A stretch of 30,068 nt of DNA from a virus. Lineage: Duplodnaviria; Heunggongvirae; Uroviricota; Caudoviricetes. Under the pieces are notes generated by a model. The model was not told where the DNA came from. It saw nothing but the letters and a program-made list of their open reading frames with translations, and did no database searches. Made by a program: the position numbers and the translations under genes. Positions 918 to 20,807 of the stretch are shown here, piece by piece (the first letter of the stretch is position 1; each line of letters starts with the position of its first letter). Location: IMG/VR virus record IMGVR_UViG_2706794678_000007; one strand, written 5' to 3'.

Positions 918-932
918 TTGCCGGAGGCGCTT

Positions 933-1349
933 ATGGCAAAAGTTTTTACACAGGAAGAGCGTGAAAAAATTAAGGAGCAGGTTGTTGAGTTGGTACGCCA
1001 GAGTGGGCGCGAGACGTTAAGGCAACTGGAGGCCAAGACAGGTGCGACAAGATATCTGATGAGCATTCTTGCCAGAGAGTTGGTTGCCAGTGGCGATGTA
1101 TACAACTCTGGCTATGGGTTATTCCCGTCTGAACAGGCTCGTAAGGATTGGAAAAACGCCCGCAAAAAACTATCCAGGGCAAAGGTGAAAAAAACGGTTG
1201 TGGTTGATCCTGACCTTATCTGGTCATTACCAGACGGAGAAATACGCCGCTATGACAGGCGTCAGAACATAATCTGTCGCGAGTGCCGGAAGAGTGAAGT
1301 TATGAAACGTGTACTGGCATTTTATCAAGGAAATCTTCGGTATTTATAG
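933..1349 (+). CDS. hypothetical prophage protein (wHTH-like N-terminus, basic C-terminus)
   Basis: ATG at 933 with GGAGG at 923-927; the ORF-track start at 918 is an upstream extension. Immediately follows the previous gene. Confidence 0.6.
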   Translation: MAKVFTQEEREKIKEQVVELVRQSGRETLRQLEAKTGATRYLMSILARELVASGDVYNSGYGLFPSEQARKDWKNARKKLSRAKVKKTVVVDPDLIWSLPDGEIRRYDRRQNIICRECRKSEVMKRVLAFYQGNLRYL

Positions 1350-1386
1350 ACGTTACTAGATCAAAGAGCATTAGTTCATATGTAAA

Positions 1387-1392
1387 TTGACA
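1387..1392 (+). promoter_or_regulatory. candidate -35 element (perfect TTGACA) upstream of the low-GC cassette; no convincing -10 found
   Basis: TTGACA at 1387-1392, about 95 nt upstream of the cassette start; followed by inverted repeat GTCCGCT-N10-AGCGGAC (1425-1448). Confidence 0.25.
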
Positions 1393-1487
1393 TTTTTCTG
1401 GCACAGGGGAGAGCTAGCGTGGTTGTCCGCTTTGTGCCAATAGCGGACATTGCTGGCTCATGGTATGTTAGTTTAAGGAGGCAGGTT

Positions 1488-2510
1488 ATGCCCTGTATTT
1501 CGCTGTGGTATAATAGTTGCGCAATTGATACAAGGGAGCGTTACATCGTGAAAATTGTTTTCGAGGTTAATGGAAAGAAAGTTCCACTAAAATCTTTAAA
1601 ATACATAAGCAAAAAAGATCAACTCGAAGTAATGAAAAACTGGTTCTTTGAAAACTTTGAAGATCCGGCAAATGCTTGTCCGTATGAAAGTAGAGAAGGT
1701 GGCTATGCTTACATATATGGCGGGCCGTATGATGCGAGCGAAGAACTACAATCCATCTTCGGTCAATATGTTAAATCTGAGTATATTGAGGAATTAGTAG
1801 ATGAATTACAAACACAATGTTTTGACTGGTCTGGAAACTCAAATAATATAGATGATTGGTACGATGATGATATCTACGACGCTGTAACGTCTTCCGGTAA
1901 TCCGTATTTAAAATTCATTGATAATATCGATAAAATAAAAAAACTTGCAAAAGATAAAACTGAACAACAGCAAAAAAACCACTTGCTTAGTTTGCTCTAC
2001 ACGAATGTTATTACAGCTTTGGAAACGCTTTATGTTGAGCTATTCATTAATTCTATAGAGAAAGATGATGTCTACATAGCCAATTGTATAGAAAAAGGTA
2101 AGACTGAATTTAAAGTAAGCAAAGATATTGCTGCGTTGCCTTTCAAGGGTGAACCCATCGAGAAAATTAGGGGAGAGCTAATCAGGTCAATCAAGGAACA
2201 CTTGATCAGTGCAAGCTGGCATAGCACTAAAAAGGTAATCGACCGCTATGAAGCTACATTCGATATAAAAGTACAAAAAGACTGTCCGATAGAAGCTATT
2301 GAATTGGCAACCCTCAATCGAAATCACTTAGTGCATCGTGGTGGAAAGGATAAAGAAGGGAACCTCGTAGTGATTACAGACCAGGATCTTGAAACGCTGA
2401 TTGAAAATGCATCGAACCTGGCAATTATGCTCTACAACAGTTTAAATGTAGCAACGAATAAAACCACCATTTTGCAACCAGATGACAAACCGTTCATTCA
2501 TGAATTTTAA
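1488..2510 (+). CDS. hypothetical protein with C-terminal HEPN-type Rx4-6H motif (LNRNHLVHRGG); candidate Abi-like RNase effector
   Basis: ATG at 1488 preceded by strong SD AAGGAGG (1475-1481, 6-nt spacer); same frame as ORF-track 1419..2510. Markedly AT-rich relative to flanking phage genes. R(2319-2321)-N-H-L-V-H(2334-2336) fits the HEPN catalytic signature near the C-terminus. Alternative start GTG 1549. Confidence 0.6.
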   Translation: MPCISLWYNSCAIDTRERYIVKIVFEVNGKKVPLKSLKYISKKDQLEVMKNWFFENFEDPANACPYESREGGYAYIYGGPYDASEELQSIFGQYVKSEYIEELVDELQTQCFDWSGNSNNIDDWYDDDIYDAVTSSGNPYLKFIDNIDKIKKLAKDKTEQQQKNHLLSLLYTNVITALETLYVELFINSIEKDDVYIANCIEKGKTEFKVSKDIAALPFKGEPIEKIRGELIRSIKEHLISASWHSTKKVIDRYEATFDIKVQKDCPIEAIELATLNRNHLVHRGGKDKEGNLVVITDQDLETLIENASNLAIMLYNSLNVATNKTTILQPDDKPFIHEF

Positions 2511-2525
2511 TAGCGCAGGTCATAC

Positions 2526-3527
2526 ATGGATATTCGCACACGAAAGACAAAATTTTTAGAGTCGTTAGATTCAACTGAAGTGATACGCAAAGCAGTAAGT
2601 CTCGCTATAGATTGCATTATTGATAATCATAATAGTAATGAAGATACCCCCTTAGTTATTACCAGCTATGATGATCTCTGTAGAATCCAGGTGCTAAATT
2701 ATGTACAGGAGTTTTGCGAAGCTGCATTCCCTGATATGGATGAATATTACTTTAGTCCTAACATACTTCGCATCAACGGCAAGACTAGTGAAGAAGCTTG
2801 TATTAACTTAATTAAACTCTTAAGAAGTACAAAAGGCATGCTATTCTGGTCCGATGCCCCATCGTGGTTCGCTAGCCTCCCCGACGGATTATTCCATGTT
2901 GTTAACATTGATCAAAAAATCGTTACTCGCGGCCTTAATAAGAAAAACTCTAAGCCGACAATAATCAATAAAGATTACAGTGTAGATACACTACTATCAG
3001 AGCTATTTTTGAATGGCGCACACATGGAGCAACCCAACGTACACAACGTTTCTGAGGGAAACATGAAGTTCTATGATGAATGCCATGCTGGATTAATCAG
3101 ACCAATACCCGCTCCAATAGGCGCGTCATACGATGAAGAGATCACAATTAATTCTCCAGATTGGCAAAAGCTCGCGTGTGTAGCTTTACGCCGCTATCAG
3201 TCGAAGGAATGTCATGACGGAATGCAATGGGATACAACCGATCATGGTTGGACTGATGTAATCGCGTATCCATTCGTCGAAGAAATACAATCAATGGATA
3301 ATAGTGGTTATCGACAATGTTTAGTTGGGCTGGTCACAATAAACAATTCAAATGCAAATTCTCCGTACCTATCTACCGTTTGGATACATCCATTTTATCG
3401 CAGGAGAGGGTTATTAAGTAAGTTATGGCCAAAATTACAAGAGTTATATGGAAGTAACTTCGAAATTGAGCGACCTAATGAAAATATGAAAGCATTTCTG
3501 AAAAGTGCGAAACACGCAGATTACTAA
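2526..3527 (+). CDS. hypothetical protein, C-terminal region resembling a GNAT acetyltransferase core (…VWIHPFYRRRGLLSKLW…)
   Basis: ATG at 2526, 15 nt after the previous stop (operon-like). AT-rich codon usage like the upstream gene. C-terminal P-x3-R-x2-G-L-L-x2-L resembles GNAT motif A; pattern recognition only, not verified. Confidence 0.55.
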   Translation: MDIRTRKTKFLESLDSTEVIRKAVSLAIDCIIDNHNSNEDTPLVITSYDDLCRIQVLNYVQEFCEAAFPDMDEYYFSPNILRINGKTSEEACINLIKLLRSTKGMLFWSDAPSWFASLPDGLFHVVNIDQKIVTRGLNKKNSKPTIINKDYSVDTLLSELFLNGAHMEQPNVHNVSEGNMKFYDECHAGLIRPIPAPIGASYDEEITINSPDWQKLACVALRRYQSKECHDGMQWDTTDHGWTDVIAYPFVEEIQSMDNSGYRQCLVGLVTINNSNANSPYLSTVWIHPFYRRRGLLSKLWPKLQELYGSNFEIERPNENMKAFLKSAKHADY

Positions 3528-3710
3528 TTTATGAATCAGTCTGTGGAGTTAGGGTTGGTGTGAACAAGTAGGGTAAGAGCCTCAACGTGATGCTATGCCG
3601 ACCTGCTCCCTGAGAATTCACACAGAAGGCTGCTAGCAATGTCTGCAGATCGCTCAAAGCGGACTAAAATGTTGGCTTGTTTCTGACTTAGAGCATTTAA
3701 GGAAGTGCTG

Positions 3711-3929
3711 GTGGTGACTGGTTGTTGTGTTCCATTTCTACAGAATAAAATCACAGAAACTATACCCAATAGTTGTATTGAATCACTGACGAGACAGCCT
3801 CATATTTATCAGGACTGGTGTGCGTCTAATACAGGGGGTTGTCGTGCTGGTTCTCAAATGTGCGCTGGCTATTGCGGCTGTAATGGCAATTTATTGTCTT
3901 GCTGTTGTTCTTATGGAGCGGCTTTCTGA
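3711..3929 (+). CDS. possible small cysteine-rich protein (11 Cys in about 72 aa); uncertain
   Basis: ORF-track 3705..3929. AAGGA at 3700-3704 with GTG at 3711 gives the best spacing. No recognised homology. Confidence 0.2.
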   Translation: MVTGCCVPFLQNKITETIPNSCIESLTRQPHIYQDWCASNTGGCRAGSQMCAGYCGCNGNLLSCCCSYGAAF

Positions 3930-4081
3930 TTGATTACATACTGGCTAGAAAAAAGGTGTTACCTTGGTTTATCTTTGTCCGGCAAGGTGCGCTCATTAAT
4001 CTTAAGTAAATTTATTGCTCAAGTATTCAGATTACTTCTTATGGTTGAAGTCTCCTGTCAATGTAGAACCAATATATTTAC

Positions 4082-4118
4082 AAAAATGAGACCCGTCGGG
4101 GATAGCCCTGCCGGGTCT
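4082..4118 (-). terminator. rho-independent terminator for the minus-strand yeaR-like gene
   Basis: Stem AGACCCG (4089-4095) / CGGGTCT (4112-4118); on the minus strand the hairpin is followed by a T-run (reverse complement of 4082-4088). Lies about 30 nt past the stop at 4148. Confidence 0.45.
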
Positions 4119-4147
4119 GACTGTTAAAGCATTTTTAATATGATCAT

Positions 4148-4486
4148 CTATTTTTTGGTGCTATAGACTTTTTCGCCCGAAAAGTCTGGAGCGACCCAAA
4201 AGTTAATATTAAACTGAGCATCATCGCTTAGTTCAACACGGTGCCAGTATTGTGGTGGGCTTGTTGCAAAAGCGCCAGCATTAATGACTACTTTTATCTC
4301 CGGTTCAGTAGCATTCTCATCAGTAAAACCATAATATGTTACAGTGCCTTCCATTACGCACAACTGCCCAAAAACACCTGCTGCTGTATTATGATGTGTT
4401 AATAACGCTGAAGGTACGTTCTCTTTTGTGAAGAACGGAGTTGAGCGTTTGATTACCCAATCTTTAGGAATTCTCTTGTGTGTCAT
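4148..4486 (-). CDS. DUF1971 family protein, YeaR-like
   Basis: Minus-strand ORF-track 4148..4510. Start trimmed to the ATG at 4486, which has SD GGAGGAGG (reverse complement of 4491-4498). Length about 112 aa and motifs (RSTPFF…, FNINFWVAP) resemble E. coli YeaR as I remember it. Confidence 0.75.
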   Translation of the reverse strand: MTHKRIPKDWVIKRSTPFFTKENVPSALLTHHNTAAGVFGQLCVMEGTVTYYGFTDENATEPEIKVVINAGAFATSPPQYWHRVELSDDAQFNINFWVAPDFSGEKVYSTKK

Positions 4487-4501
4487 AACCACCTCCTCCA
4501 A

Positions 4502-4524
4502 AACATGCATTAAAAATGCATCTT
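4502..4524 (-). promoter_or_regulatory. candidate NsrR operator (11-1-11 inverted repeat) in the yeaR-like promoter
   Basis: AACATGCATTA-A-AAATGCATCTT closely matches the NsrR consensus AAnATGCATTT-n-AAATGCATnTT. Sits 16-38 nt upstream of the start codon; a TTGACA -35 on the minus strand lies at 4536-4541. Confidence 0.5.
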
Positions 4525-5299
4525 TTGGAGGGTTATGTCAAGCTGTTATGAAACACATAATTGATATGTTGATTAGAGGAGAAGATAGAATAAATATGGT
4601 TGTTTTTCGTATAACTATTTGTTTTACTTTTAGTTTATGCATTCTGTGTGTTAGGAATAAGTTATTAAAGTTTAATCAAAAAATCTCGATGTAGTCCACA
4701 TAGATTACTGTTACTGAACCTTATTGTGTGTATTAGTTGTGTTCTGAAATTTCAGCTTAATTATTTATGATGTATTTTTTAACGATAAATATTTTCCCAG
4801 GATACCTTTACTGTGTATATAAATAAATTATATACGCATAAATAATGTAAAGGCGTCCTTTTAGATATATCTTATCAAATGTTAATGACTTGAGTGGGAA
4901 ATATGATTCCAGCAACTTATCATGTGGCTACTTTATAAAAATAATGCCCATATAAAACAACAAGCGAAAAGGATTACGGATAAAAAAGGAGCGAGATGTG
5001 CGAACTTGTTATTTTCCATGTTTAACCACCTTAAATAATTGATGATGACGGGATGATTGCATCTGTAATGCTTTTATTGAAATGTTATGATAAAAAAGAA
5101 CTTTTGCATAACATTAAAATGTAATTTATCTAATCGTTTTTAATAATAAGTGTCGTATTTCTATCCTTGTACCAGCTATTTGATATGTAGTGTTTGTTCA
5201 TGCTATGTGGGGCTTTACACCATAGCCAGTTTATTTATACTTTATTCGTCAGCCTGAACAACTGGCATCTGCTGCGCTGCGCCATCGAGAGATTGAGAA

Positions 5300-5899
5300 A
5301 TGGCGCATATACAACTGGTCAAACAAACCTCTTCTGGTTTACTTCTCCCGGCGACGCCGGAGAGTTGCGATTTTCTGCATCAAATCAAAATAGGTGAGTG
5401 GATACACGCAGACTTTAAGCGTGTGCGTAACTACGCATTCCACAAGCGTTTTTTCAAACTCCTGCAACTGGGATTCGATTACTGGACTCCGGTCGGTGGG
5501 GCGATCACGCCTCGCGAACGAGAACTGCTGTCTGGTTTCGTTGATTACCTGTGCGAATCAGTTGGTCGGGAACACACGCCAGCCCTGAGTGATGCCGCAG
5601 AGCAATACCTTAACACCGTTGCGACTCGTAGAACCCGGGATACGGCGTTGCTAAAGTCGTTTGAGGCTTTCCGCGAGTGGGTAACCATTCAGGCCGGATT
5701 TTACACCGAGCATATTTATCCGGACGGTAGCCGTGGGCGTCGGGCAAAATCCATCGCTTTTGCGAATATGGACGAAGTCGAGTTTCAGCAGGTTTATAAA
5801 TCTGTACTGAATGTGCTGTGGAACTGGATTCTGTTCCGTAAATTCTCCTCTCAGGAGGAAGTTGAAAATGTGGCCGCACAACTACTGGAGTTTGCGTAA
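5300..5899 (+). CDS. nin-region protein, DUF1367-like (YbcN-like)
   Basis: ORF 5300..5899, immediately upstream of the YbcO-like gene and Q, matching nin-region order in lambdoid prophages. Family assignment from memory. Confidence 0.65.
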   Translation: MAHIQLVKQTSSGLLLPATPESCDFLHQIKIGEWIHADFKRVRNYAFHKRFFKLLQLGFDYWTPVGGAITPRERELLSGFVDYLCESVGREHTPALSDAAEQYLNTVATRRTRDTALLKSFEAFREWVTIQAGFYTEHIYPDGSRGRRAKSIAFANMDEVEFQQVYKSVLNVLWNWILFRKFSSQEEVENVAAQLLEFA

Positions 5900-6189
5900 T
5901 GGTGAATTTACGTAAAGCGGCTAAAGGCCAGATGTGCCAGATCAGAATCCCTGGCTACTGCAATCACAATCCCGAAACCTCTGTGCTGGCGCATTACAGG
6001 CTGGCGGGGACGTGCGGAACAGCGACAAAACCACATGATATGCAGGCGGCGATAGCCTGTAGCTCATGCCACGATCTAATCGACGGGCGGGTAAAAACCA
6101 GCGATTACACCAAAGAAGAATTGCGCCTGATGCATGCTGAAGGGGTTTTTCGCACACAAGAAATCTGGAGAAAGAAAGGTCATTTATGA
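5899..6189 (+). CDS. DUF1364 family protein (YbcO-like, Cys-rich putative nuclease/zinc-binding)
   Basis: 96 aa, Cys-rich (CQIRIPGYCNH…CSSCHD). Stop of the previous gene overlaps its start. Same length and nin-region position as DLP12 YbcO. Confidence 0.7.
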   Translation: MVNLRKAAKGQMCQIRIPGYCNHNPETSVLAHYRLAGTCGTATKPHDMQAAIACSSCHDLIDGRVKTSDYTKEELRLMHAEGVFRTQEIWRKKGHL

Positions 6190-6728
6190 TTTACCCAACG
6201 AATACAGGAAAAAGCGGAGAACACCTTCGCCTCACCACGCTGGAAAGTGTCTGGATTCAGGGAAAACTACGTATGTGGGGGCGCTGGTCGTATATTGGCG
6301 GTGGCAGGTCAGGGAATATGTTCAATCAGTTGTTGGCATCCAAAAAACTGACGAAAACAGCCATTAATGAAGCCCTGCGCAGAATGAAAAAAGCGGGAAT
6401 AGAGAAAGCTGAGCTGGAAGCGTTTTTGCGAGAGATGATCAACGGCAAGCAAAAGAGCTGGCTGGCGCATTGTACTGATGCAGAGGCGTTATGTATTGAT
6501 CGAGTCATAAGTGAGGTGCTGGCAGAGCATCCAGGATTGATTTGCATTCTCCGGCAACGCTATGAAGGGCGGGGGATGACTAAGCGCAAAATGGCTGAAT
6601 TGCTAAATGATGCACACCCAGAGTGGTGTTTTAGCACATGCGAAAAACGGATTGCTAATTGGTTAGCTGTTGCTGAGTATGCCCTATATATTCCCATGCG
6701 TGAATCATTTGCTGAGAAAATGGCTTGA
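6186..6728 (+). CDS. Q: late-gene antiterminator Q (Phage_antitermQ-like)
   Basis: Sits after nin genes and before the lysis cassette. W-G-R-W motif (LRMWGRWSY) resembles the QuuD-family signature. Overlaps the upstream gene by 4 nt. Confidence 0.6.
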   Translation: MIYPTNTGKSGEHLRLTTLESVWIQGKLRMWGRWSYIGGGRSGNMFNQLLASKKLTKTAINEALRRMKKAGIEKAELEAFLREMINGKQKSWLAHCTDAEALCIDRVISEVLAEHPGLICILRQRYEGRGMTKRKMAELLNDAHPEWCFSTCEKRIANWLAVAEYALYIPMRESFAEKMA

Positions 6729-6745
6729 TTTCTTACGTATAAACT
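6705..6745 (+). promoter_or_regulatory. candidate late promoter PR' region (-10-like TATAAA at 6738-6743); -35 not confidently placed
   Basis: Just 3' of Q, about 75-95 nt upstream of the tR'-like terminator, as expected for a lambdoid late leader. Confidence 0.3.
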
Positions 6746-6814
6746 GCTTCAATTTTGCTATGCTTCGCAAAGCTGTATCGCGAGGCGGATTGCAGACATG
6801 GACATCGTAAAAAA

Positions 6815-6836
6815 ACCGCTTAATGCGGTTTTTTTA
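6815..6836 (+). terminator. rho-independent terminator (tR'-like) downstream of Q
   Basis: AACCGC-TTAAT-GCGGTT hairpin followed by TTTTTTT (6830-6836), with an A-run before it. Confidence 0.6.
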
Positions 6837-7156
6837 CGTCAGGAAAGCAGGGGAGAATGCTGCTAGTTGGGCAACTGGTCTTTCTGCTCCAAATTATAAC
6901 AGAGACCAGTTATAGTTTCGGTGCTGTGTTTTTTTTACAATATTGTGATAACACATTGCTGGCGGGAGTTTTGATATTTCTTGGCAGGGGCTGATGATGC
7001 GTTATCCTGATGTCGTCAACTCATATAAAATGAGATGAGAGATCATTGCAGGGTGGTTTGTAATTCGCTGTTTAGCGGGACAATATGTTGTCTGATACAA
7101 GACACCCGACGCCTCAGATTACTATAATAAAGACGAAGCATCCTTTGTATTGACCA

Positions 7157-7185
7157 ACCGCCTGTTTAGGCGGTTCTTTTTGGGC
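7157..7185 (+). terminator. rho-independent terminator-like hairpin in the Q-S intergenic region
   Basis: AACCGCCT-GTTT-AGGCGGTT (8-bp stem) followed by CTTTTT. A TATAAT at 7124-7129 lies about 30 nt upstream. Confidence 0.45.
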
Positions 7186-7737
7186 TGGTTTATTGTATGC
7201 CAAATGATTATTAAAAAGGTTGTGTTAATAACAAGATCCGAAATAATATGCCTGCATATTTTTATCTTGCTTATATTCTGCATATTGTGCATAGCAGGCT
7301 CATCCCTGCAATCAAAACTGTATGATGAGTATTTTTTGTTTTCCTTTTTTCCAGTCATCTGATGATGACCTGCTTCTTTTTAATCCGGATCGACATCAGT
7401 TTTTTAAGATAATTCCTGCGAGTTATATGCATAAATGCCACAAACTCCGCATTTTATGTGGTTGGGAGTTGCCGGGCGCGCAGTGAGTTTGCTAAGAAAA
7501 CTCCTGCATGGTGAATCCCCCTGTGCGGTGGGGTGATACCATTAACCTTTTCTGTCGCCGACAGGTATCACGAACATTTTGTTCACCGGGAGGCACCCGG
7601 CACCATGCACTTCAATAGATTCTCTCCACATTATGGATATTCTTTCAGAATATCCCACGCAGACTTTGTGTAAATGTTAACAAATGTGCGTTTTATTTGA
7701 TCTGATTCGCTGTTTGAGCGTCCAAAACAACGGTATA

Positions 7738-7743
7738 TATAAT
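7738..7743 (+). promoter_or_regulatory. candidate -10 (TATAAT) for the first TolA-like lipoprotein gene
   Basis: TATAAT about 30 nt upstream of ATG 7773; RBS GAGGAA directly upstream of the start. Weak -35. Confidence 0.3.
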
Positions 7744-7772
7744 CCTTTACTATATGACATATGTGAGGAAAA

Positions 7773-8201
7773 ATGGGTTTTCGTAGCGCATCAATTCTTA
7801 CGTTGATTATTAGTGGGATTATTATCGGGTGCACTGATGCTGTATCGACAAATTATCATGACCGTACATCATATTACTCCGATAAAGCAATAGAGACACA
7901 GTATGTGAGTTCATCTGAACGTACTTCTGATGTTAGTGAGGATATCCGTCTGTATGCCCATCAAATCAAGAGCGCCATCGAAAAACAGTTCGGGGATGCG
8001 AGTAAGTATTCAGGAAAAGAGTGTACACTGAGAATGCATATGGCCCCGAATGGCCTTCTACTGGAGGTTAAAAGAGAAAGTGGAGACCTCGATTTATGTC
8101 GTGAAGCGATGAATGCGATAAAGAATGCTGATATACCTGCCCCCCCTTCGCCGGAAGTATATAAAGTATTTCAAAATGGGGTGCTGGATTTTAAACCCTG
8201 A
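7773..8201 (+). CDS. lipoprotein with TolA C-terminal (domain III)-like domain
   Basis: Signal peptide plus lipobox (IIIGC). C-terminal …YAHQIKSAIEKQFGDASKYSGKECTLRMHMAPNGLLLEVK…PPSPEVYKVFQNGVLDFKP closely parallels E. coli TolA domain III (…CTLRIKLAPDG…PPSQAVYEVFKNAPLDFKP, from memory). Confidence 0.8.
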   Translation: MGFRSASILTLIISGIIIGCTDAVSTNYHDRTSYYSDKAIETQYVSSSERTSDVSEDIRLYAHQIKSAIEKQFGDASKYSGKECTLRMHMAPNGLLLEVKRESGDLDLCREAMNAIKNADIPAPPSPEVYKVFQNGVLDFKP

Positions 8202-8351
8202 TATTTATTGTTTTGTAATAAACGGTTTCGGCTTAGGTTTGTTCTGACACAGCTACGGCACTGAGCTAAATTTAGCGGATAGTCAGCTCTGAGCCAGTGG
8301 CGGACGTAACAACTACTATTGCTGAGATTTTAATGGATTGAGGAGCAAGAA

Positions 8352-8747
8352 GTGGGATTAAAGAAAATCGTTATGTTGACTTTTTGGGTCGGTTTTGTTG
8401 CGGGATGCACACCTTTACACCCTTCAGATTGCCACAAAACTACTGCTACAGGTAGTTGCAGTTCAGGACGCTGGGATGATCAGGATGAATGGGGGGCGCA
8501 AGCGCGGGGAATCAGAGCTGCAATTAATGCCAAACTTGATGAGCCGCATAACTGGAAAGGGAAAAAATGCAGGTTGCATATGGAATTCTCTCAGGATGGC
8601 ACGGCGTTAAAAATATCTACCAGTAACGGTGATAAAGCCTATTGCGAAGCGATAAAGTCCGCAGCTCATAAAGCCAAATTTCCGGCCTTCAACAATCCGG
8701 AAGTCTACAGAGATTTTCAGAAATCTGGCTTTGACATGCGAGGTTAG
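8352..8747 (+). CDS. lipoprotein, paralog of the upstream gene, TolA domain III-like
   Basis: GTG at 8352 with GAGGAG at 8340-8345 (6-nt spacer). Lipobox (VAGC). C-terminal KKCRLHMEFSQDGTALKIS…NNPEVYRDFQKSGFDM aligns with the upstream protein and with the TolA III pattern. Confidence 0.75.
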   Translation: MGLKKIVMLTFWVGFVAGCTPLHPSDCHKTTATGSCSSGRWDDQDEWGAQARGIRAAINAKLDEPHNWKGKKCRLHMEFSQDGTALKISTSNGDKAYCEAIKSAAHKAKFPAFNNPEVYRDFQKSGFDMRG

Positions 8748-8872
8748 CTCTTCAATTACTATATCTCATTCATAGCAAACTGACAGATTTGATGATGTTC
8801 TATATACGAAACCTGTGATGTCAAGTCTGAGCTAATACAAATAAACATAATATCAGAGAAATACATTTTATT

Positions 8873-8896
8873 AGCTCGCTACGGCGAGCTTTTTAT
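8873..8896 (+). terminator. rho-independent terminator after the lipoprotein pair
   Basis: AGCTCGC-TACG-GCGAGCT hairpin followed by TTTTTAT. Confidence 0.5.
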
Positions 8897-8998
8897 ATTG
8901 CATCGTCTCCAGCATATATATCAATTAAGGCTCTGATTGATGTGTCTGAAAGCCTACACATAATAACTATGCCATCCGTTCCGTGCGGAGGTGAGGCT

Positions 8999-9214
8999 AT
9001 GAAATCCATGGACAAAATTTCAACAGGCATTGCCTACGGCACCTCCGCAGGCAGTGCTGGCTACTGGTTTTTACAGTTGCTCGATAGAGTAACTCCGTCA
9101 CAGTGGGCTGCAATCGGTGTGCTGGGTAGTCTGGTATTTGGCCTGCTGACGTACCTGACAAACCTTTATTTCAAGATTAAAGAAGATAAGCGCAAGGCTG
9201 CGAGAGGTGAATAA
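8999..9214 (+). CDS. S: class II holin, phage 21 S-type pinholin (dual-start MKSM motif)
   Basis: 71 aa ([29 protein letters not shown]…[11 protein letters not shown]), two TMDs and a charged C-terminus. Start trimmed from ORF-track 8942; GGAGG upstream. Overlaps the endolysin start by 1 nt. Confidence 0.9.
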
Positions 9215-9711
9215 TGCCTCCATCATTACGAAAAGTCGTTGCTGCTGCTATTGGTGGCGGAGCAATTGCTATAGCATCAGTGTTAATCACTGGCCCAAGT
9301 GGTAACGATGGTCTGGAAGGTGTCAGCTACATACCATACAAAGATATTGTTGGTGTATGGACTGTATGTCACGGGCATACAGGAAAAGACATCATGCTCG
9401 GTAAAACGTATACCAAAGCAGAATGCAAAACACTCTTGAATAAAGACCTTGCCACTGTCGCCAGACAAATTAACCCGTACATCAAAGTCGATATACCGGA
9501 AACAACGCGCGGCGCTCTTTACTCGTTCGTTTACAACGTGGGCGCTGGCAATTTCAGAACATCGACGCTTCTTCGCAAAATAAACCAGGGCTATATCAAA
9601 GGCGCATGTGATCAGCTACGTCGCTGGACATATGCTGGCGGTAAGCAATGGAAAGGTCTCATGACTCGTCGTGAGATTGAGCGTGAAGTCTGTTTGTGGG
9701 GGCAACAATGA
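9214..9711 (+). CDS. R: SAR endolysin (phage 21 R-type lysozyme)
   Basis: 165 aa. N-terminal hydrophobic Gly/Ala-rich SAR segment ([20 protein letters not shown]), then an E-x8-D-x5-T lysozyme motif. Confidence 0.9.
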
Positions 9712-10172
9712 GCAGAGTAACCGCGATTATCTCCGCTCTGGTTATCTGCATCATCGTCTGCCTGTCATGGGCTGTTAATCATTACCGTGATAACGCCATT
9801 ACCTACAAAGCCCAGCGCGACAAAAATGCCAGAGAACTGAAGCTGGCGAACGCGGCAATTACTGACATGCAGCAGAGACAGCGTGATGTTAATGCACTCG
9901 ATGCTAAATACACGAAGGAGTTAGCTGATGCGAAAGCTGAAAATGATGCTCTGCGTGATGATGTTGCCGCTGGTCGTCGTCGGTTGCACATCAAAGCAGT
10001 CTGTCAGTCAGTGCGTGAAGCCACCACCGCCTCCGGCGTGGATAATGCAGCCTCCCCCCGACTGGCAGACACCGCTGAACGGGATTATTTCACCCTCCGG
10101 GAACGACTGGTAATGATGCAGGCCCAACTTGAAGGTGCTCAGCAATACATAACCGAGCAGTGTTTAAAGTAA
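9708..10172 (+). CDS. Rz: i-spanin Rz
   Basis: ATG 9708 overlaps the endolysin stop. N-terminal TMD then coiled-coil-like charged region; embedded Rz1 in the +1 frame. Confidence 0.85.
9928..10113 (+). CDS. Rz1: o-spanin Rz1 (lipoprotein, proline-rich), embedded in Rz
   Basis: Lipobox VVGC and PPPPP tract; fully nested out of frame within Rz, the classic arrangement. Confidence 0.8.
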
Positions 10173-10309
10173 AATCTTAACTACAATATGATTCATTTTG
10201 ATGATTGTTTCATAAGGAACAGTGAAGTAAGATCTAAGAGGAGTTAAATTTTATACAGTATAATCATAATATTGCAGCAAGGTGGTTATAATTGAAAGAA
10301 TATTTAGAT

Positions 10310-11767
10310 ATGAATACATCTCATGTAAGAGTTGTTACTCATATGTGTGGGTTCCTGGTTTGGCTCTATAGTCTTTCAATGTTGCCACCAATGGTTGTAG
10401 CATTGTTTTATAAAGAAAAAAGCCTGTTCGTTTTCTTTATAACTTTCGTTATATTTTTTTGCATTGGTGGCGGAGCGTGGTATACAACTAAGAAATCTGG
10501 CATTCAATTACGTACCCGTGATGGGTTTATTATAATTGTAATGTTTTGGATTTTGTTTTCTGTTATTAGTGCATTCCCTTTATGGATTGACTCAGAACTT
10601 AATTTAACGTTCATTGATGCTCTGTTTGAAGGGGTTTCTGGAATAACAACAACAGGAGCAACTGTAATTGATGATGTTAGTTCATTACCTCGGGCATATT
10701 TGTACTATCGGTCACAGTTAAATTTTATAGGTGGTTTAGGAGTTATTGTTCTGGCGGTTGCAGTATTGCCATTATTGGGTATTGGTGGTGCAAAGCTTTA
10801 TCAGTCAGAAATGCCGGGGCCATTTAAGGATGACAAACTCACTCCCCGCCTGGCCGATACGTCACGGACACTGTGGATAACTTATTCTTTATTAGGTATT
10901 GCTTGTATTGTCTGTTATAGACTTGCAGGAATGCCTTTGTTTGATGCTATTTGTCACGGGATTTCCACAGTTTCGCTTGGTGGTTTCTCAACTCATAGCG
11001 AGAGTATCGGATATTTTAATAACTATTTGGTTGAGCTGGTGGCTGGTTCTTTTTCCCTGCTATCGGCTTTCAACTTCACTCTTTGGTATATTGTTATTAG
11101 CAGAAAAACGATAAAACCTTTAATCAGAGATATTGAACTTCGTTTCTTTCTGTTAATAGCCTTAGGGGTGATCATTGTTACCTCTTTCCAGGTCTGGCAT
11201 ATAGGTATGTATGACTTGCATGGAAGTTTTATTCATTCGTTTTTTCTTGCCAGCTCCATGCTCACTGATAATGGTTTAGCTACGCAGGATTATGCAAACT
11301 GGCCCACGCACACGATAGTGTTTTTGCTGTTGTCAAGTTTCTTTGGGGGATGTATAGGTTCAACCTGTGGTGGAATTAAGTCACTTCGATTTCTTATACT
11401 TTTCAAACAAAGCAAACACGAGATAAATCAGCTTTCTCATCCCAGAGCGTTGTTGAGTGTAAATGTAGGAGGGAAGATAGTTACAGATCGTGTAATGAGG
11501 TCTGTATGGAGTTTCTTTTTTCTTTATACTCTCTTCACGGTGTTTTTTATACTGGTGTTAAATGGTATGGGATATGATTTTCTTACATCATTTGCAACAG
11601 TGGCTGCATGTATTAATAATATGGGATTAGGTTTTGGGGCTACTGCATCGTCATTCGGAGTGCTTAATGACATTGCAAAATATTTAATGTGCATAGCTAT
11701 GATTCTTGGTCGCCTTGAAATTTATCCTGTTATTATATTGTTTTCAGGTTTTTTTTGGCGCTCCTAA
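10310..11767 (+). CDS. trkG: Trk-system K+ uptake protein TrkG (TrkH/TrkG family)
   Basis: 485-aa polytopic membrane protein with repeated glycine-containing selectivity-filter-like segments (TTTGATV, LGIGGAK, STVSLGGFST, NNMGLGFG). Recognised as TrkG, known to be prophage (Rac)-encoded in E. coli K-12. Start at ATG 10310 (MNTSH…); the ORF-track TTG at 10292 has a better SD and is a possible alternative. Confidence 0.93.
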   Translation: MNTSHVRVVTHMCGFLVWLYSLSMLPPMVVALFYKEKSLFVFFITFVIFFCIGGGAWYTTKKSGIQLRTRDGFIIIVMFWILFSVISAFPLWIDSELNLTFIDALFEGVSGITTTGATVIDDVSSLPRAYLYYRSQLNFIGGLGVIVLAVAVLPLLGIGGAKLYQSEMPGPFKDDKLTPRLADTSRTLWITYSLLGIACIVCYRLAGMPLFDAICHGISTVSLGGFSTHSESIGYFNNYLVELVAGSFSLLSAFNFTLWYIVISRKTIKPLIRDIELRFFLLIALGVIIVTSFQVWHIGMYDLHGSFIHSFFLASSMLTDNGLATQDYANWPTHTIVFLLLSSFFGGCIGSTCGGIKSLRFLILFKQSKHEINQLSHPRALLSVNVGGKIVTDRVMRSVWSFFFLYTLFTVFFILVLNGMGYDFLTSFATVAACINNMGLGFGATASSFGVLNDIAKYLMCIAMILGRLEIYPVIILFSGFFWRS

Positions 11768-11853
11768 TATATGGCTGATTTATAATTGTGAGTTTAATAT
11801 TATGTTGACTCACTCATTGATCCAATACCTAACTTTACCAGCAACACCTCCGC

Positions 11854-11888
11854 CCCCAGTAGCACTGGCTGCTGGGGTGCGTTTTATT
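11854..11888 (+). terminator. terminator-like hairpin after trkG
   Basis: CCCCAGTAGC-ACTG-GCTGCTGGGG (one mismatch) followed by a T-rich tail. Confidence 0.4.
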
Positions 11889-11904
11889 CATAAAGCAAGG
11901 CTGT

Positions 11905-12693
11905 ATGAGCGAGAAATTAAAGATAGTCTATCGCCCATTACAAGAATTGTCACCGTATGCGCACAACGCCAGGACGCACAGTACTGAGCAGGTGGCACAA
12001 CTGGTAGAAAGTATTAAGCAATTCGGCTGGACTAATCCGGTGCTGATTGACGAAAAGGGCGAAATTATTGCGGGTCACGGTCGTGTTATGGCGGCTGAAA
12101 TGCTCAAAATGGATTCTGTTCCGGTCATTGTTCTGTCTGGCCTGACGGATGAGCAGAAAAAGGCGTACCGCCTGGCAGATAATCGCCTGCCGATGAATGC
12201 TGGCTGGGATGAAGATCTGTTGCGGATGGAGCTGTCGGACCTAATCAATGCTGATTTTGATGTCTCCCTGACAGGCTTCATCCCGGCAGAAATTGATGAA
12301 CTGTTGACGGATGTTTTGCCCGGTACAGGAAATGAGGAGGAGCCGTATACGACGAAAATTGATACGCCTGTTTATGAGCCGTCAGGCGGTAAACCGGATA
12401 TCAGTGAACTGTACGACGATACGAAAACTCAGGAGCTGATCAGCCGGATACGTTCGGCGTCCCTTGATCCTGATATTGAGAAATTCCTCCTGTGTGCAGC
12501 AGAACGTCACACGGTGTTTAATTTCAGCAGAATTGCGGACTATTACGCTCATGCCCCCGCTGAAATTCAGTGCCTTTTCGAGGAGTCGGCGCTGGTGATC
12601 ATTGATTATCAGCAGGCTATTGAAAATGGATTTGTCCGAATGACGCAGCGCATGGTGGAGATCATGCATGGCGGGGAGGAGGAATATGCGTGA
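11905..12693 (+). CDS. ParB-like nuclease domain protein (YnaK-like, full length)
   Basis: N-terminal ParB/Srx-type motif (…IIAGHGRVMAA…). Sits between trkG and the terminase genes, as in Rac. Confidence 0.8.
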   Translation: MSEKLKIVYRPLQELSPYAHNARTHSTEQVAQLVESIKQFGWTNPVLIDEKGEIIAGHGRVMAAEMLKMDSVPVIVLSGLTDEQKKAYRLADNRLPMNAGWDEDLLRMELSDLINADFDVSLTGFIPAEIDELLTDVLPGTGNEEEPYTTKIDTPVYEPSGGKPDISELYDDTKTQELISRIRSASLDPDIEKFLLCAAERHTVFNFSRIADYYAHAPAEIQCLFEESALVIIDYQQAIENGFVRMTQRMVEIMHGGEEEYA

Positions 12694-13618
12694 TGATTTT
12701 TGCGCCTTTATTCTGACTCACGGGCGACCGGACAAAGTTCTGACTTACCGGACGTTGCGTCGTGCTGGCTATACCGGGAAAATTTTTATCGTTGTTGATG
12801 ATGAAGATAAGACACGGCATCAGTACATGGCTGAATTTGGTGAACAGGTGCTGGTATTTTCCAAAGCCGATATTGCTAGTCGTTTTGACGAAGCCGATAA
12901 TTTTAGTGACCGCCGCTCAATTTTTTACGCCCGTAATGCCTGTTTCGACCAGGCAAAACTGGTCGGGTGTAAATACTTCATTCAGCTCGATGATGATTAT
13001 CACGAGTTCCAGTTTCGGGTGGATCGCAACTATGACCAGGCCTATTTCCCGATAAGGAAACTGGATGAGATCCTTTCTGAAATGCTTGCGTACTACGAAT
13101 CAATACCTGCTCTTTCCATCGCTATGTCGCAGGGCGGGGATTTTCTTGGTGACAATGGCGGCCATGCTTCGTGGGTGAAACGCAAGGCAATGAACAGCTT
13201 TATCTGTTCGGTTGATCGACCGTTCTCATTCATGGGGCGCATTAACGAGGATGTGAATACGTACACGAATCTCGGTCGCTGTGGTGAATTGTTTATGACG
13301 ATCGGTGCTGTCCAGTTAGGGCAGAAACAGACGCAGAAAAACAGCGGCGGAATGACCGAGCTGTATCTGGATTCCGGAACCTACGTTAAAAGTTTTTACT
13401 CCGTCATGTATGCGCCGTCGTGCGTAAAAATCTCACTTATGGGTGCCAGTCATAAACGCATTCACCATCAGGTCACCTGGAACAACGCTGCAGTAAAAAT
13501 CCTTCACGAAAAATACAGGAAGAAGACACCCTGCATATCAATGGGGGTGACAAATGATTCCGTATTCGAAAGTCGAGTCTCTGGCAGCGTGCCGGATGAC
13601 TGCACAACAAATCGCTGA
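12686..13618 (+). CDS. hypothetical protein, possibly GT-A-like (DxD-type motif FIQLDDDY)
   Basis: ATG 12686 with GGAGG at 12676-12680, overlapping the ParB-like gene stop; ORF-track 12668..13618. Rossmann-like N-terminus and LDDD motif suggest a nucleotide-sugar transferase fold. Inference only. Confidence 0.55.
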   Translation: MRDDFCAFILTHGRPDKVLTYRTLRRAGYTGKIFIVVDDEDKTRHQYMAEFGEQVLVFSKADIASRFDEADNFSDRRSIFYARNACFDQAKLVGCKYFIQLDDDYHEFQFRVDRNYDQAYFPIRKLDEILSEMLAYYESIPALSIAMSQGGDFLGDNGGHASWVKRKAMNSFICSVDRPFSFMGRINEDVNTYTNLGRCGELFMTIGAVQLGQKQTQKNSGGMTELYLDSGTYVKSFYSVMYAPSCVKISLMGASHKRIHHQVTWNNAAVKILHEKYRKKTPCISMGVTNDSVFESRVSGSVPDDCTTNR

Positions 13619-13805
13619 CGTTCTGGATGTTGATCTGAACCGACTGAAAGAAAATCGGGAAGCAATGACAGATTTTTATGCGGCCATCCGTAAGGGCAGA
13701 GCGAAAGGTGAAGCCGAGTTACGAGCGGCATTGTTTAAGCTTGCCAGAAAAGGGGATGCCTTTGCTCTGCGCGAACTACTCAGGGTGGATAAAAATCAGG
13801 ACTAA
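13554..13805 (+). CDS. small HTH-like protein (hypothetical); start uncertain (13554 or 13596)
   Basis: 83-aa ORF overlapping the 3' end of the upstream gene; helix-turn-helix-like segment TAQQIADVLDVD; immediately precedes terS. Confidence 0.4.
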   Translation: MIPYSKVESLAACRMTAQQIADVLDVDLNRLKENREAMTDFYAAIRKGRAKGEAELRAALFKLARKGDAFALRELLRVDKNQD

Positions 13806-13808
13806 CTG

Positions 13809-14903
13809 ATGAGCAGACCGGACTGGGGGGCGTTGCAGCAGGAGTATATTGCTGAATACACCCGCTCCGGTATATCTCCGGTGGCATGGTGTGAAGCAAG
13901 GGGACTGAATTACGCAACAGCCCGTCGTTACATCAAAAAAACTCCGAAAAATGCGCAGACAGAAATGTGCAAAACTGCGCAAAAAAGTGCGCAGAAAAAA
14001 TCTGCGCAGACTGCACAAAAGCGGAACGAAAAATCTCAGGAAAAAAAGCCAGTATTCGATGCGGGCCTGAATGAGGGCGACGCGGAGGAATTTTCGTTCT
14101 GTCCCGATGAATTCGGCATTTCTGACCAGCAGGCTAAGTTTGCGATGCTTGTTGCTCAGGGTAAAAAGCCGACAGAGGCGTACCGACTAGCCGGTTATGA
14201 GGGGCAAGGTGCGACAGCTAACAGCAACGCCAGTCGTATGCTTAGAAATGCCAGGGTTTTTCGCGCTATCAGCTACTTCCGCAATCAGTACCAGAAACGC
14301 TATACCGCAGACCTGGATTTACTAGTGAGTCAGTTGATGGCTATTGTCCTGGCCGACCCCAATCAGCTTGCACAATTTCGCCGTGTTAACTGCCGTTATT
14401 GCTGGGGCGAGAATCATCTCTACCAGTGGCGCGATATAGCAGAATTCGACAAGGCAGCGGCGCAGGCTTCCAGAGATGGCAAACCCGAACCGGAATATGG
14501 AGGCCTCGGCTTTGTTGATAACGCCATACCCAATCCGGACTGCCCGAAGTGCTGCGGTGAGGGAACGGGACAGCTTTATATGGCTGATACCACTCTGCTT
14601 GATGGGGATGCGCGGCAATTATATGCAGGGGCAAAATTCGGAAAATTCGGCGTTGAGATCCTGCTGGAGGATAAGGCTGCCGCCCGGCGTGAATTGTTGC
14701 GTTTGTTTTCTGCTGGCGGGGCTTTATGTGCAGATAAGCGGCTACGGGAACTGGAAATTGAACGGCGCAGAATGGAAAACCAGAAGCTGCGCAAAGAGAT
14801 CGAAACGGTGGAAGATAATGAACATCCCCAGCCTGTGGCGATCAATATTAATGTGGTTGATGCCAGAGTAAGGAGTGATGAAGATGATCTCTCCGACGCT
14901 TAA
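13809..14903 (+). CDS. terS: terminase small subunit
   Basis: Directly upstream of and overlapping terL; N-terminal HTH-like region, Lys/Gln-rich repetitive linker, Cys cluster (CRYCWG…CPKCCGEG), C-terminal coiled-coil. Confidence 0.75.
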   Translation: MSRPDWGALQQEYIAEYTRSGISPVAWCEARGLNYATARRYIKKTPKNAQTEMCKTAQKSAQKKSAQTAQKRNEKSQEKKPVFDAGLNEGDAEEFSFCPDEFGISDQQAKFAMLVAQGKKPTEAYRLAGYEGQGATANSNASRMLRNARVFRAISYFRNQYQKRYTADLDLLVSQLMAIVLADPNQLAQFRRVNCRYCWGENHLYQWRDIAEFDKAAAQASRDGKPEPEYGGLGFVDNAIPNPDCPKCCGEGTGQLYMADTTLLDGDARQLYAGAKFGKFGVEILLEDKAAARRELLRLFSAGGALCADKRLRELEIERRRMENQKLRKEIETVEDNEHPQPVAININVVDARVRSDEDDLSDA

Positions 14904-16185
14904 TGTGCCTCAGGCGCGATTTCTTTCAATGCCCCATAAATTTAAAGCCTATATTGCTGGTTTTGGCTCGGGCAAAACATGGGTTGGGTGTGGCGGCATA
15001 TGCAAGGGGATTTGGGAGCATCCAGGTATAAATCAGGGATATTTTGCGCCAACGTATCCCCAAATTCGCGATATTTTTTACCCTACAGTGGAAGAAGTTG
15101 CTGCTGACTGGGGATTGAACGTAAAAATTAATGAGGGAAATAAAGAGGTTCACTTTTATTACGGACGCCAGTATCGGGGAACCACTATCTGCAGATCGAT
15201 GGAGAAGCCACAAACGATCGTCGGTTTCAAAATTGGTAATGCGTTGGTGGATGAACTGGACATTTTGCCGAAGGAAAAAGCCAGAACGGCGTGGCGCAAG
15301 ATAATTGCACGTATGCGTTATAAGATTGATGGACTTCGCAACGGTATTGACGTTACAACCACGCCGGAAGGATTCAAATTTGTCTACGAGCAGTTTGTTA
15401 AAGCCGTGCGTGAAAAAACAGAGCTGGCCTCACTGTATGGTCTGGTGCAGGCATCTACTTTCGATAATGAAAAGAACCTGCCAGCAGATTACATTCCTTC
15501 GCTTCTTGAATCATACCCTCCAGAGCTGATTAAAGCCTATCTTCGAGGACAGTTTACTAACCTGACAAGTGGTACTGTTTACCATCAGTTTGACCGGAAA
15601 CTGAATAATTGCGAAGAAGTGGAGCAGCCAGGGGAGCCGATTTATATTGGGATGGATTTTAACGTTGGAAAGATGGCGGGAATCGTCCATGTGCTGCGTT
15701 TGGGGCTTCCATGTGCGGTAACTGAAATCATCAATGCCTACGATACGCCGGATATGATCCGCATCATTAAAGAACGCTTCTGGCTGTATGATGGGAATGA
15801 TTACCGGAAAGTGAGGGAAATTTATATTTATCCAGATGCTTCCGGGGATTCCAGAAAATCAAGTAACGCAAGTACGACGGATATAGCCCAGCTTAAGCAG
15901 GCTGGTTTTAACGTTGTGGTGAACAGCTCGAACCCGCCAGTAAAAGATCGCGTTAACTCAATGAATGCAATGTTCTGCAATGCCAATGGTGAGCGTCGCT
16001 ATAAAGTTAATGTGAAGCGTTGCCCGTTATATGCCGAATCTCTGGAGCAACAGGTCTGGGATGAGAAGGGGGAGCCTGATAAAAAATCTGGCAATGATCA
16101 CCCGAATGATGCCGGAGGTTATTTCATCGTTAAGCAATTCCCTATTGTCAAACCGACCGGAAGAGTCACATCACTTCGGATTTAA
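14884..16185 (+). CDS. terL: terminase large subunit
   Basis: Walker A-like motif GFGSGKT near the N-terminus; size and position before portal. Start ATG 14884 chosen for SD AAGGAG (14870-14875) spacing; the ORF-track GTG 14875 is too close to the SD. Confidence 0.9.
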   Translation: MISPTLNVPQARFLSMPHKFKAYIAGFGSGKTWVGCGGICKGIWEHPGINQGYFAPTYPQIRDIFYPTVEEVAADWGLNVKINEGNKEVHFYYGRQYRGTTICRSMEKPQTIVGFKIGNALVDELDILPKEKARTAWRKIIARMRYKIDGLRNGIDVTTTPEGFKFVYEQFVKAVREKTELASLYGLVQASTFDNEKNLPADYIPSLLESYPPELIKAYLRGQFTNLTSGTVYHQFDRKLNNCEEVEQPGEPIYIGMDFNVGKMAGIVHVLRLGLPCAVTEIINAYDTPDMIRIIKERFWLYDGNDYRKVREIYIYPDASGDSRKSSNASTTDIAQLKQAGFNVVVNSSNPPVKDRVNSMNAMFCNANGERRYKVNVKRCPLYAESLEQQVWDEKGEPDKKSGNDHPNDAGGYFIVKQFPIVKPTGRVTSLRI

Positions 16186-16187
16186 TT

Positions 16188-18690: not shown

Positions 18691-18710
18691 ATAAATCATT
18701 TATTACAACA

Positions 18711-18735
18711 GGCTACCTTCGGGTGGCCTTTTTTA
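18711..18735 (+). terminator. terminator-like hairpin (UUCG tetraloop) between head morphogenesis and scaffold genes
   Basis: GGCTACC-TTCG-GGTGGCC (one G·U wobble) followed by TTTTTT. Confidence 0.4.
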
Positions 18736-20797: not shown

Positions 20798-20807
20798 ACA
20801 TTCAAAC

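Follow-up and report, generated by a model that had tools for sequence, protein, structure and literature searches.

Two lipoproteins of a Rac-type prophage carry a TolA domain III-like fold and are candidate decoys for colicins and filamentous phages

Two neighbouring genes for predicted lipoproteins, each ending in a domain homologous to TolA's C-terminal domain (TolA domain III, TolAIII), were found in the 30,068-nucleotide stretch of Caudoviricetes DNA held as IMG/VR record IMGVR_UViG_2706794678_000007 (hereafter the window). The open reading frames (ORFs), ORF1 and ORF2, sit between a Q-like antiterminator gene and the P21-type holin gene of a Rac-type prophage. Group A colicins and filamentous phages both enter by way of TolAIII in the periplasm, and TolAIII is also the force-transmitting end of the Tol-Pal system. 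The reading that we favour, with a probability of about 0.4, is that ORF1 and ORF2 act as outer-membrane-tethered, uncoupled decoys of TolAIII that would make the host tolerant to colicins or filamentous phages. ORF1 is a reasonable candidate for such a role; the case is weaker for ORF2, which may recognise a different, conserved ligand.

ORF1 (7773..8201, plus strand) encodes a lipoprotein precursor of 142 amino acids and starts at the ATG at 7773, preceded by a GAGG ribosome-binding site. Its signal peptide and lipobox (residues 1-20, 7773-7832) end at the lipobox cysteine, Cys20, and are followed by a disordered tether (residues 21-54, 7833-7934) and the TolAIII-like domain (residues 55-142, 7935-8198). 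ORF2 (8352..8747, plus strand) encodes a precursor of 131 amino acids composed of a signal peptide and lipobox (residues 1-19, 8352-8408; lipobox cysteine Cys19), a conserved linker with two cysteines, Cys27 and Cys36 (residues 20-45, 8409-8486), and the TolAIII-like domain (residues 46-131, 8487-8744). The GTG at 8352 is preceded by GAGGAG and lines up with the ATG or GTG starts of plasmid and chromosomal homologues. This alignment, together with the conservation of the ribosome-binding site, indicated that GTG 8352 is likely the true start of ORF2, in preference to the shorter version called by RefSeq and to the longer versions called in other places.

Both N-termini present a basic segment, then a hydrophobic one, and then a lipobox (I-I-G-C20 in ORF1 and V-A-G-C19 in ORF2) that agrees with the pattern [LVI][ASTVI][GAS]C; its Gly-Cys pair was invariant in an alignment of 38 members from both families. 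Thr occupies position +2, directly after the lipobox cysteine, in ORF1 and ORF2, and the homologues examined have Ala, Ser or Thr there. According to the Lol sorting rule, Asp at +2 keeps a lipoprotein in the inner membrane; with Thr at this position, ORF1 and ORF2 are predicted to be lipidated and sorted to the outer membrane.

The identity of the folded domain was supported by profile, sequence and structure alike, as the preliminary description of this DNA had proposed from the lipobox and the C-terminal residues. The Pfam family TolA_C (PF06519, gathering score 25) matched ORF1 with 82.6 bits (E 2.4e-23) and ORF2 with 54.6 bits (E 1.3e-14). Residues 55-142 of ORF1 aligned without gaps to residues 334-421 of Escherichia coli TolA in seven distinct PDB sequences (E ~5e-28), and over TolA 333-421 the identity was 52 of 89 residues (58%), both proteins ending in LDFKP followed by the stop codon. 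ORF2 shared 27 of 89 residues (30%) with TolAIII, and the two ORFs were 29% identical to each other (E 2e-18).

AlphaFold models were built on family alignments and superposed on PDB structures by Foldseek. The predicted local distance difference test score (pLDDT) was above 90 across the TolAIII-like domain of both proteins and below 50 for residues 18-50 of ORF1 and for most of the first 24 residues of ORF2. The ORF1 model superposed on 2x9a_B with a root-mean-square deviation (rmsd) of 0.6 Å over 88 residues (template modelling score, TM, of 0.96, normalised by target length) and the ORF2 model on 3qdp with 1.2 Å over 86 residues (TM 0.91); thus, both the profile search and the structural comparison put forward as checks in the preliminary description gave a positive outcome. 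TolAIII structures ranked at the top of the PDB matches for ORF1 and ORF2, TonB C-terminal domains being distant, and the modelled domains showed the three-helix, three-strand alpha/beta fold of TolAIII. The cysteine pair C363/C388 forms a disulfide in TolAIII. Its equivalents (C84/C109 in ORF1, C73/C98 in ORF2) were invariant in the 38-sequence alignment and kept in 145/145 and 144/145 members of a larger set. Fold, Pfam family and disulfide cysteines are therefore common to the two ORFs and to E. coli TolAIII (PDB 1TOL, 1S62, 2X9A, 3QDP/3QDR).

In contrast with this likeness of the domain, the rest of TolA was missing. The full-length TolA models NF007065 and TIGR02794 were matched only at positions 293-386 of 387. 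With NF007065, ORF1 (107.8 bits) and ORF2 (53.7 bits) both stayed under the cut-off of 213; with TIGR02794 (cut-off 59.45), ORF2 scored 47.2 bits whereas ORF1, with 75.6 bits, passed on its C-terminal domain alone. Neither protein has the inner-membrane helix that couples TolA to TolQR, the N-termini being lipoprotein signal peptides with an anchor predicted for the outer and not the inner membrane. Domain II is absent as well, and the lipobox cysteine is separated from the domain by no more than 26-34 residues, most of which were modelled with low confidence. Moreover, the genes are carried on mobile elements and not in the tol-pal operon, and ORF2 has diverged to 30% identity and gained a Cys-containing N-terminal segment. 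ORF1 and ORF2 are not TolA, for they lack its anchor, its domain II and its operon context and score below the NF007065 cut-off; they are members of the TolA_C family by homology, that is, captured domains. The likeness to TolAIII claimed in the preliminary description was thus borne out, whereas its interpretation as mimicry was not.

The ligand-binding surfaces of TolAIII were kept to different extents in the two proteins. Site 1, formed by helix 334-349 and strand 412-420, binds the N1 domain of the filamentous phage gene 3 protein (g3p-N1), colicin N and the N-terminus of TolB (PMC4339652, PMC7391070), with Y340, I344, I348, F412, D418, F419 and K420 as functionally important residues, mutations of which weaken or abolish the function of colicin N, g3p or TolB (PMC4339652). 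Site 2, on the opposite edge, binds colicin A and comprises L375-P380, K368, K379, L392 and K396 (PMC3365938). ORF1 retained the seven key residues of site 1 (7/7) and 17 of the 25 site 1 positions, against an overall identity of 52/89, together with four of nine colicin A site positions (L375, L376, K379 and K396). ORF2 retained I344, I348, F412 and D418 but presented the changes Y340Q, F419M and K420R; its identity was 6/25 in site 1 and 2/9 in the colicin A site, against 27/89 overall. Judged by these residues, ORF1 is clearly the better surrogate of TolA, with 58% identity, the same C-terminal residue and the docking residues for g3p, colicin N and TolB. The docking modes are largely backbone-mediated strand additions, and divergence of side chains would accordingly be compatible with binding.

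The preliminary description had considered the two genes as paralogues. Their homology held at 29% identity, whereas a single history did not, as two families with different distribution and constraint were found. ORF1-type proteins formed 46 clusters, which came from E. coli and Shigella records only and were located in prophages. A variant 66% identical to ORF1 occurred in other lambdoid prophages of E. coli, with Q upstream and a holin gene downstream, and had no ORF2 partner; it was rare, being present in two complete genomes at 80% coverage or more. ORF1-type proteins evolve fairly fast; when the two ORF1 types were compared, the ratio of nonsynonymous to synonymous substitution rates (dN/dS) was 0.24 for the domain and reached 0.59 for the tether.

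ORF2-type proteins formed 370 clusters and were also found in Citrobacter, Enterobacter, Serratia, Klebsiella and Raoultella. In the mature part of this family dN/dS was 0.04-0.11 at synonymous distances (dS) of 0.5-1.1, reflecting very strong purifying selection. Selection was as strong as in the domain over the extension that joins anchor and domain, a nearly invariant segment (C-x-P-L-H-P-S-x-C-H-K-T-T-A-x-G-S-C-S-S-G-R-W-D-D-Q-D-E-W-G) that is found neither in TolA nor in ORF1. It brings two extra cysteines that TolA lacks, and Cys27 and Cys36 of ORF2 may form a disulfide loop. The purifying selection seen in both families indicated that ORF1 and ORF2 are functional genes. An exhaustive HMMER search with ORF2 against 1.84 billion representatives of a 50%-identity library gave 130 matches; 72 of them were 100-175 amino acids long and, of these, 52 had a lipobox-like motif, which points to tethered stand-alone TolA_C domains as a broad and diverse class.

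The genomic settings of the ORF2 family were varied. In Enterobacter and Citrobacter the gene stands alone in the chromosome amid ordinary metabolic genes, and in the Serratia marcescens chromosome it lies between nrdDG and a pair of genes encoding GmrSD-N (DUF262-type) and HEPN (MAE_28990 / RiboL-PSP) proteins, the pair resembling a small defence islet. A copy with 87% nucleotide identity was present in about 600 E. coli and Shigella plasmid records, and the context was inspected in three plasmids. In the conjugative IncI1/B/O plasmids pHUSEC41-1 and RCS90_pI the homologue is placed directly downstream of the NikB-type relaxase gene, and in the IncF, pO157-like plasmid pTA150 it is flanked by the psiB/psiA/hok leading region and toxB. 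The possibility that the ORF2-bearing plasmids of about 92-95 kb were P1-like phage-plasmids was rejected, the three inspected being two IncI1/B/O plasmids and one IncF plasmid with toxB.

The 1.35-kb unit formed by ORF1 and ORF2 was present, with at least 80% of its length covered, in 773 of 5,426 complete E. coli genomes (~14%), nearly always at 99% identity or more. In IMG/VR it was found in all 80 prophage contigs retained, with ORF1 always upstream of ORF2, and among the 50,697 phage records of INPHARED only mEp460_ev081 carried the genes. The genes also occur in unrelated contexts, which is consistent with a mobile unit. No TolAIII-like fold was obtained from BFVD, the collection of predicted viral protein structures, at E <= 1e-3.

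Rac of K-12 MG1655 aligned to positions 1-605, 9728-12158 and 23716-25087 of the window only. It lacks 606-9727, and with it the Q-like gene, ORF1, ORF2, holin and lysozyme, a deletion whose scar corresponds to ydaW and rzpR, as well as 12159-23715, which includes the head-gene block. ORF1 and ORF2 are therefore absent from K-12 because its Rac prophage has been deleted across this segment, and this absence may explain why the genes have been overlooked.

Under the decoy reading, ORF1 and ORF2 would be anchored in the outer membrane and face the periplasm, each as a stand-alone TolAIII on a tether of 25-35 residues. Having neither an inner-membrane anchor nor a long helical domain, they would not be coupled to the TolQR motor. 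The tethered domains would lie immediately beneath the outer membrane, at the place where g3p-N1 and the translocation domains of colicins first appear, and could capture TolAIII-docking proteins by beta-strand addition, among them g3p-N1 of filamentous phages and the translocation domains of group A colicins and other bacteriocins. The captured ligands would be trapped in an unenergised, dead-end complex, and the lysogen or plasmid host would become tolerant to the colicins and phages so trapped. The analysis showed the identity and fold of the domain, the lipoprotein signals, the arrangement of the genes and their distribution, whereas we infer that the proteins are lipidated, reach the outer membrane, bind ligands, protect the cell and are expressed in the lysogen. 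Export of free TolAIII into the periplasm reportedly gave E. coli tolerance of colicins E1, E2, E3 and A and made it leaky (Levengood-Freyermuth et al. 1993). The affinities reported for TolAIII are ~1-15 µM for g3p-N1 and for the colicin N translocation domain (ColN-T) and ~40 µM for TolB (PMC4339652); since the invaders bind more tightly, a decoy could titrate them more easily than it would the host partner.

The settings in which the genes were found, namely the stx-type slot, the IncI1/B/O and pO157-like plasmids and the GmrSD-N/HEPN neighbourhood of Serratia, fit an accessory or competition function. In addition, IncI pili are the receptor of the filamentous phage If1, and its co-receptor is TolAIII (PDB 2x9a, which was among the top structural matches of the ORF models). 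As IncI pili attract If1, a TolAIII copy adjoining the relaxase gene of IncI-type plasmids could offset this liability. A wider proposal, which we put forward as possible though on balance doubtful, is that prophages and IncI/B/O and pO157-like plasmids of Enterobacterales carry copies of the TolA co-receptor as an unstudied class of immunity factors. Such copies would intercept Tol-dependent bacteriocins and g3p before these reach energised TolA, the two types covering different ligand sets and the IncI copy compensating for the cost of the pilus in the face of If1.

Known systems offer partial parallels. The soluble TolAIII over-produced in the periplasm in the laboratory is uncoupled, as is predicted for ORF1 and ORF2; the natural forms differ in being lipid-tethered (a prediction), diverged and of two types, and their expression is presumably low enough to avoid leakiness. 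Cor of phi80, N15 and mEp phages, Llp of T5 and TraT of the F plasmid are exclusion lipoproteins that shield the carrier cell against incoming phages by inactivating or masking an outer-membrane receptor (FhuA, OmpA). As small envelope lipoproteins encoded by accessory genes of phages and plasmids, they are the nearest functional analogues. They share no sequence similarity with ORF1 or ORF2, however, which would act on the invader, by titrating it with a copy of a periplasmic co-receptor, and not by masking a receptor. Ff phages give superinfection immunity through g3p synthesised inside the cell, which occupies TolA and so renders the cell tolerant to colicins. The same interaction between TolAIII and its ligands would be targeted here, with the same block of colicin and filamentous-phage entry, but as a mirror image, the ORF copy saturating the ligand and leaving host TolA free.

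Several observations weigh against the decoy reading, mostly on the side of ORF2. This protein showed no preferential conservation of the known ligand sites (6/25 and 2/9), and its family is very strongly constrained and occurs in ordinary chromosomal neighbourhoods in Enterobacter and Citrobacter, as would be expected more of a protein with a conserved cellular partner than of a decoy engaged in an arms race. A TolAIII decoy should bind TolB too and could harm the envelope as free TolAIII does. The candidate promoter of ORF1 is a consensus match only, and both genes lie in the late transcription unit. The defence models of PADLOC gave no match for ORF1 or ORF2 at E <= 0.1, and in PHROGs the only significant family (E <= 1e-3) was phrog_5772, of 'unknown function'; a marginal match (E 0.0035) was to a second family of unknown function.

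An unlikely alternative is that the tethered TolAIII works as a phage antagonist of Tol-Pal, binding the TolB N-terminus or another TolA partner in competition with TolA. If abundant from the Q-dependent late transcript, it would loosen the outer membrane, which could increase vesiculation or leakage, hasten lysis or aid the release of periplasmic cargo. The place of the genes in the late operon, immediately upstream of those for holin, endolysin and spanins, speaks for it, as does the leakage that free periplasmic TolAIII reportedly causes (Levengood-Freyermuth 1993). A TolA-annotated gene of prophage CP-933O that rose 32-fold after ciprofloxacin (PMC11125564), its homology to ORF1 or ORF2 being unverified, also counts in favour. 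On the other side, lysis genes are missing from the surroundings of plasmid and chromosomal ORF2-type genes, a complete set of Rz/Rz1 spanins is already present in the prophage, and the ORF1-ORF2 unit has a promoter-like site and a terminator of its own. A conserved host partner such as the TolB N-terminus would also explain the constraint on ORF2. ORF1 retains D418 and K420, two residues whose replacement by proline does away with TolB binding and produces a tol phenotype (PMC4339652), and vesicle production is possibly regulated through TolB-TolA contacts (review PMC7391070); the affinity between TolB and TolAIII is nevertheless weak (~40 µM).

We judge it rather improbable that the proteins, ORF2 in the main, are envelope lipoproteins with a conserved partner of their own, unrelated to the ligands of TolA. 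A domain of the TolA/TonB type would then have been put to a new use, the docking of a beta-strand from another protein of the periplasm or outer membrane, and the copies on phages and plasmids would be passengers of general benefit to the envelope or under stress. This would account for the chromosomal, non-phage copies of Enterobacter, Citrobacter and Serratia, for the dN/dS of 0.04-0.11 that extends over a Cys-containing N-terminal extension absent from TolA, for the loss of known TolA ligand sites in ORF2 and for the breadth of the tethered TolA_C class (52/72). Conversely, ORF1 clearly tracks the surfaces of TolA, gene neighbourhoods vary between genera so that no candidate partner emerges from them, and the repeated capture by prophages and by IncI/B/O and pO157-like plasmids points to a function useful to mobile elements. 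That ORF1 is a mere tolA fragment and ORF2 a decaying hypothetical gene, both debris of a cryptic prophage, appears highly improbable. ORF1 is labelled by PGAP as an incomplete tolA, and some database copies are frameshifted at a C7 tract; the label is, however, traceable to the TIGR02794 cut-off that the short ORF1 passes, the tract is unshifted in 79 of 80 independent prophage copies, ORF1 is complete with ribosome-binding site, signal peptide and lipobox, and dN/dS is 0.24 in its domain and 0.04-0.11 for ORF2. A pseudogene status of ORF1 was rejected on account of the intact reading frame and the dN/dS.

The C7 homopolymer lies at 8140..8146 (plus strand), in the P-A-P-P-S codons of ORF1 directly before the last helix and strand, and the frameshifts of several database ORF1-type proteins fall exactly there, with the loss of both elements. 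Among the IMG/VR prophages C7 was intact in 79 of 80 copies and C8 appeared in one; a regular phase switch at this tract was rejected as probably not occurring.

If the decoy reading is true, the two proteins would represent a new mode of resistance to bacteriocins and phages, based on titration by a copy of the co-receptor and not on masking of a surface receptor, with consequences for the ecology of colicins in the gut, for the way in which cryptic prophages and virulence plasmids affect fitness, and for therapeutics that use phages or bacteriocins. If they are instead antagonists of the TolB-TolA contact, the envelope stability and vesiculation that depend on Tol-Pal would have in them their first known natural regulators. 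A natural copy of TolAIII without a motor is widespread: the gene pair occurs in ~14% of complete E. coli genomes, and genes of the ORF2 type are found on IncI/B/O and pO157-like plasmids; the genes are common and located on medically relevant elements, and K-12, which naturally lacks them, provides a clean test background.

Recognition of the domain is not new, TolA_C being already present in RefSeq and RAST annotation. In RefSeq the product of ORF2 is called 'cell envelope integrity TolA C-terminal domain-containing protein', whereas PGAP labels ORF1 as a 'tolA, incomplete, missing N-terminus' pseudogene and starts ORF2 at an internal ATG. The pseudogene label arises because ORF1 is short and passes the TIGR02794 cut-off through its C-terminal domain, and both PGAP calls look like annotation artefacts. 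Full-text literature searches, whose coverage of the literature is incomplete, yielded no functional study of these proteins, in agreement with the preliminary description, which knew of no characterisation. Two papers mention TolA-annotated phage genes incidentally: the same region, given as 1,355 bp and annotated 'TolA protein, hypothetical protein', is listed in a comparative-genomics table as strain-variable in uropathogenic E. coli (PMC6854850), and a TolA-annotated gene of prophage CP-933O, whose homology to ORF1 or ORF2 is unverified, was up 32-fold after ciprofloxacin (PMC11125564).

The position between Q and S proposed for the two genes was confirmed by their neighbours. On the upstream side are genes for a NinB-like protein and a YbcO-like nuclease, and the Q-like late antiterminator gene (6186..6728, plus strand), which matched Pfam DUF1133 with 356 bits, Phage_antitermQ at the borderline and PHROG 753, 'anti-termination protein Q-like', with E 2e-79. 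The lysis cassette (8999..10172, plus strand) forms the downstream boundary of the slot and consists of the P21-type holin (8999-9214; Phage_holin_2_1), lysozyme (9214-9711; Phage_lysozyme), Rz (9696-10172; Phage_lysis) and Rz1 (9928-10113; Rz1), all on the plus strand and assigned by the Pfam families given; an identical locus in RefSeq carries the names essD and rrrD in the cassette.

This is the genomic position of stx and other Q-to-S cargo of lambdoid prophages, from which Q-dependent late transcription is predicted, plus possibly transcription from a promoter of the unit's own; the cargo is, however, an envelope lipoprotein and not an exported toxin. The equivalence with the stx slot, also advanced earlier, was supported by the 66%-identical ORF1 variant, which occupies the exact stx position in at least one prophage. 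The gene order there begins with Q, a TfpB-like gene, an AraC-type regulator gene, tRNA-Ile/Arg and the TolA-like gene, which in at least one locus is followed by a nanS-p-like esterase gene, DUF1378, DUF826 and the holin gene. A tRNA search of the gap of about 1 kb between Q and ORF1 in the window found none, whereas the stx-type prophages with the ORF1 variant have tRNAs.

As to transcription signals, an intrinsic terminator was found after ORF2 (8873..8896, plus strand; AGCTCGC-TACG-GCGAGCT followed by TTTTTAT), with a GC-rich stem of 7 bp at 8873-8890. A candidate sigma-70 promoter for ORF1 is located at 7714..7743 (plus strand; TTGAGC-18-TATAAT, 10/12 consensus positions), 30 nucleotides before the ATG, and the segment 7701-7772 that contains it was identical in 72 of 80 IMG/VR copies. 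Promoter-like sites in this AT-rich region numbered 11, against 7.0 ± 2.4 in shuffled sequences, and were not significantly enriched, so that the site is held as a candidate only. The moron layout suggested earlier, with the unit's own promoter and terminator, is thus sustained for the terminator, the promoter remaining a candidate. Before ORF2 no promoter shared across contexts could be defined, as conservation between them begins only about 40 nucleotides before the start codon.

An STnc100-family RNA element (7476..7662, plus strand; Rfam RF02076, 86.6 bits with a gathering score of 47, E 1.4e-18) is placed between the Q-like gene and ORF1, just before the candidate promoter, and may be part of the leader of the late transcript. 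Directly after Q, at 6762-6835, an isrK-like Rfam match was obtained below threshold. Beyond the lysis cassette, the potassium transporter gene trkG (10292-11767) lies between Rz/Rz1 and the ynaK-like and terminase genes, as a second cargo gene of the late region of the prophage.

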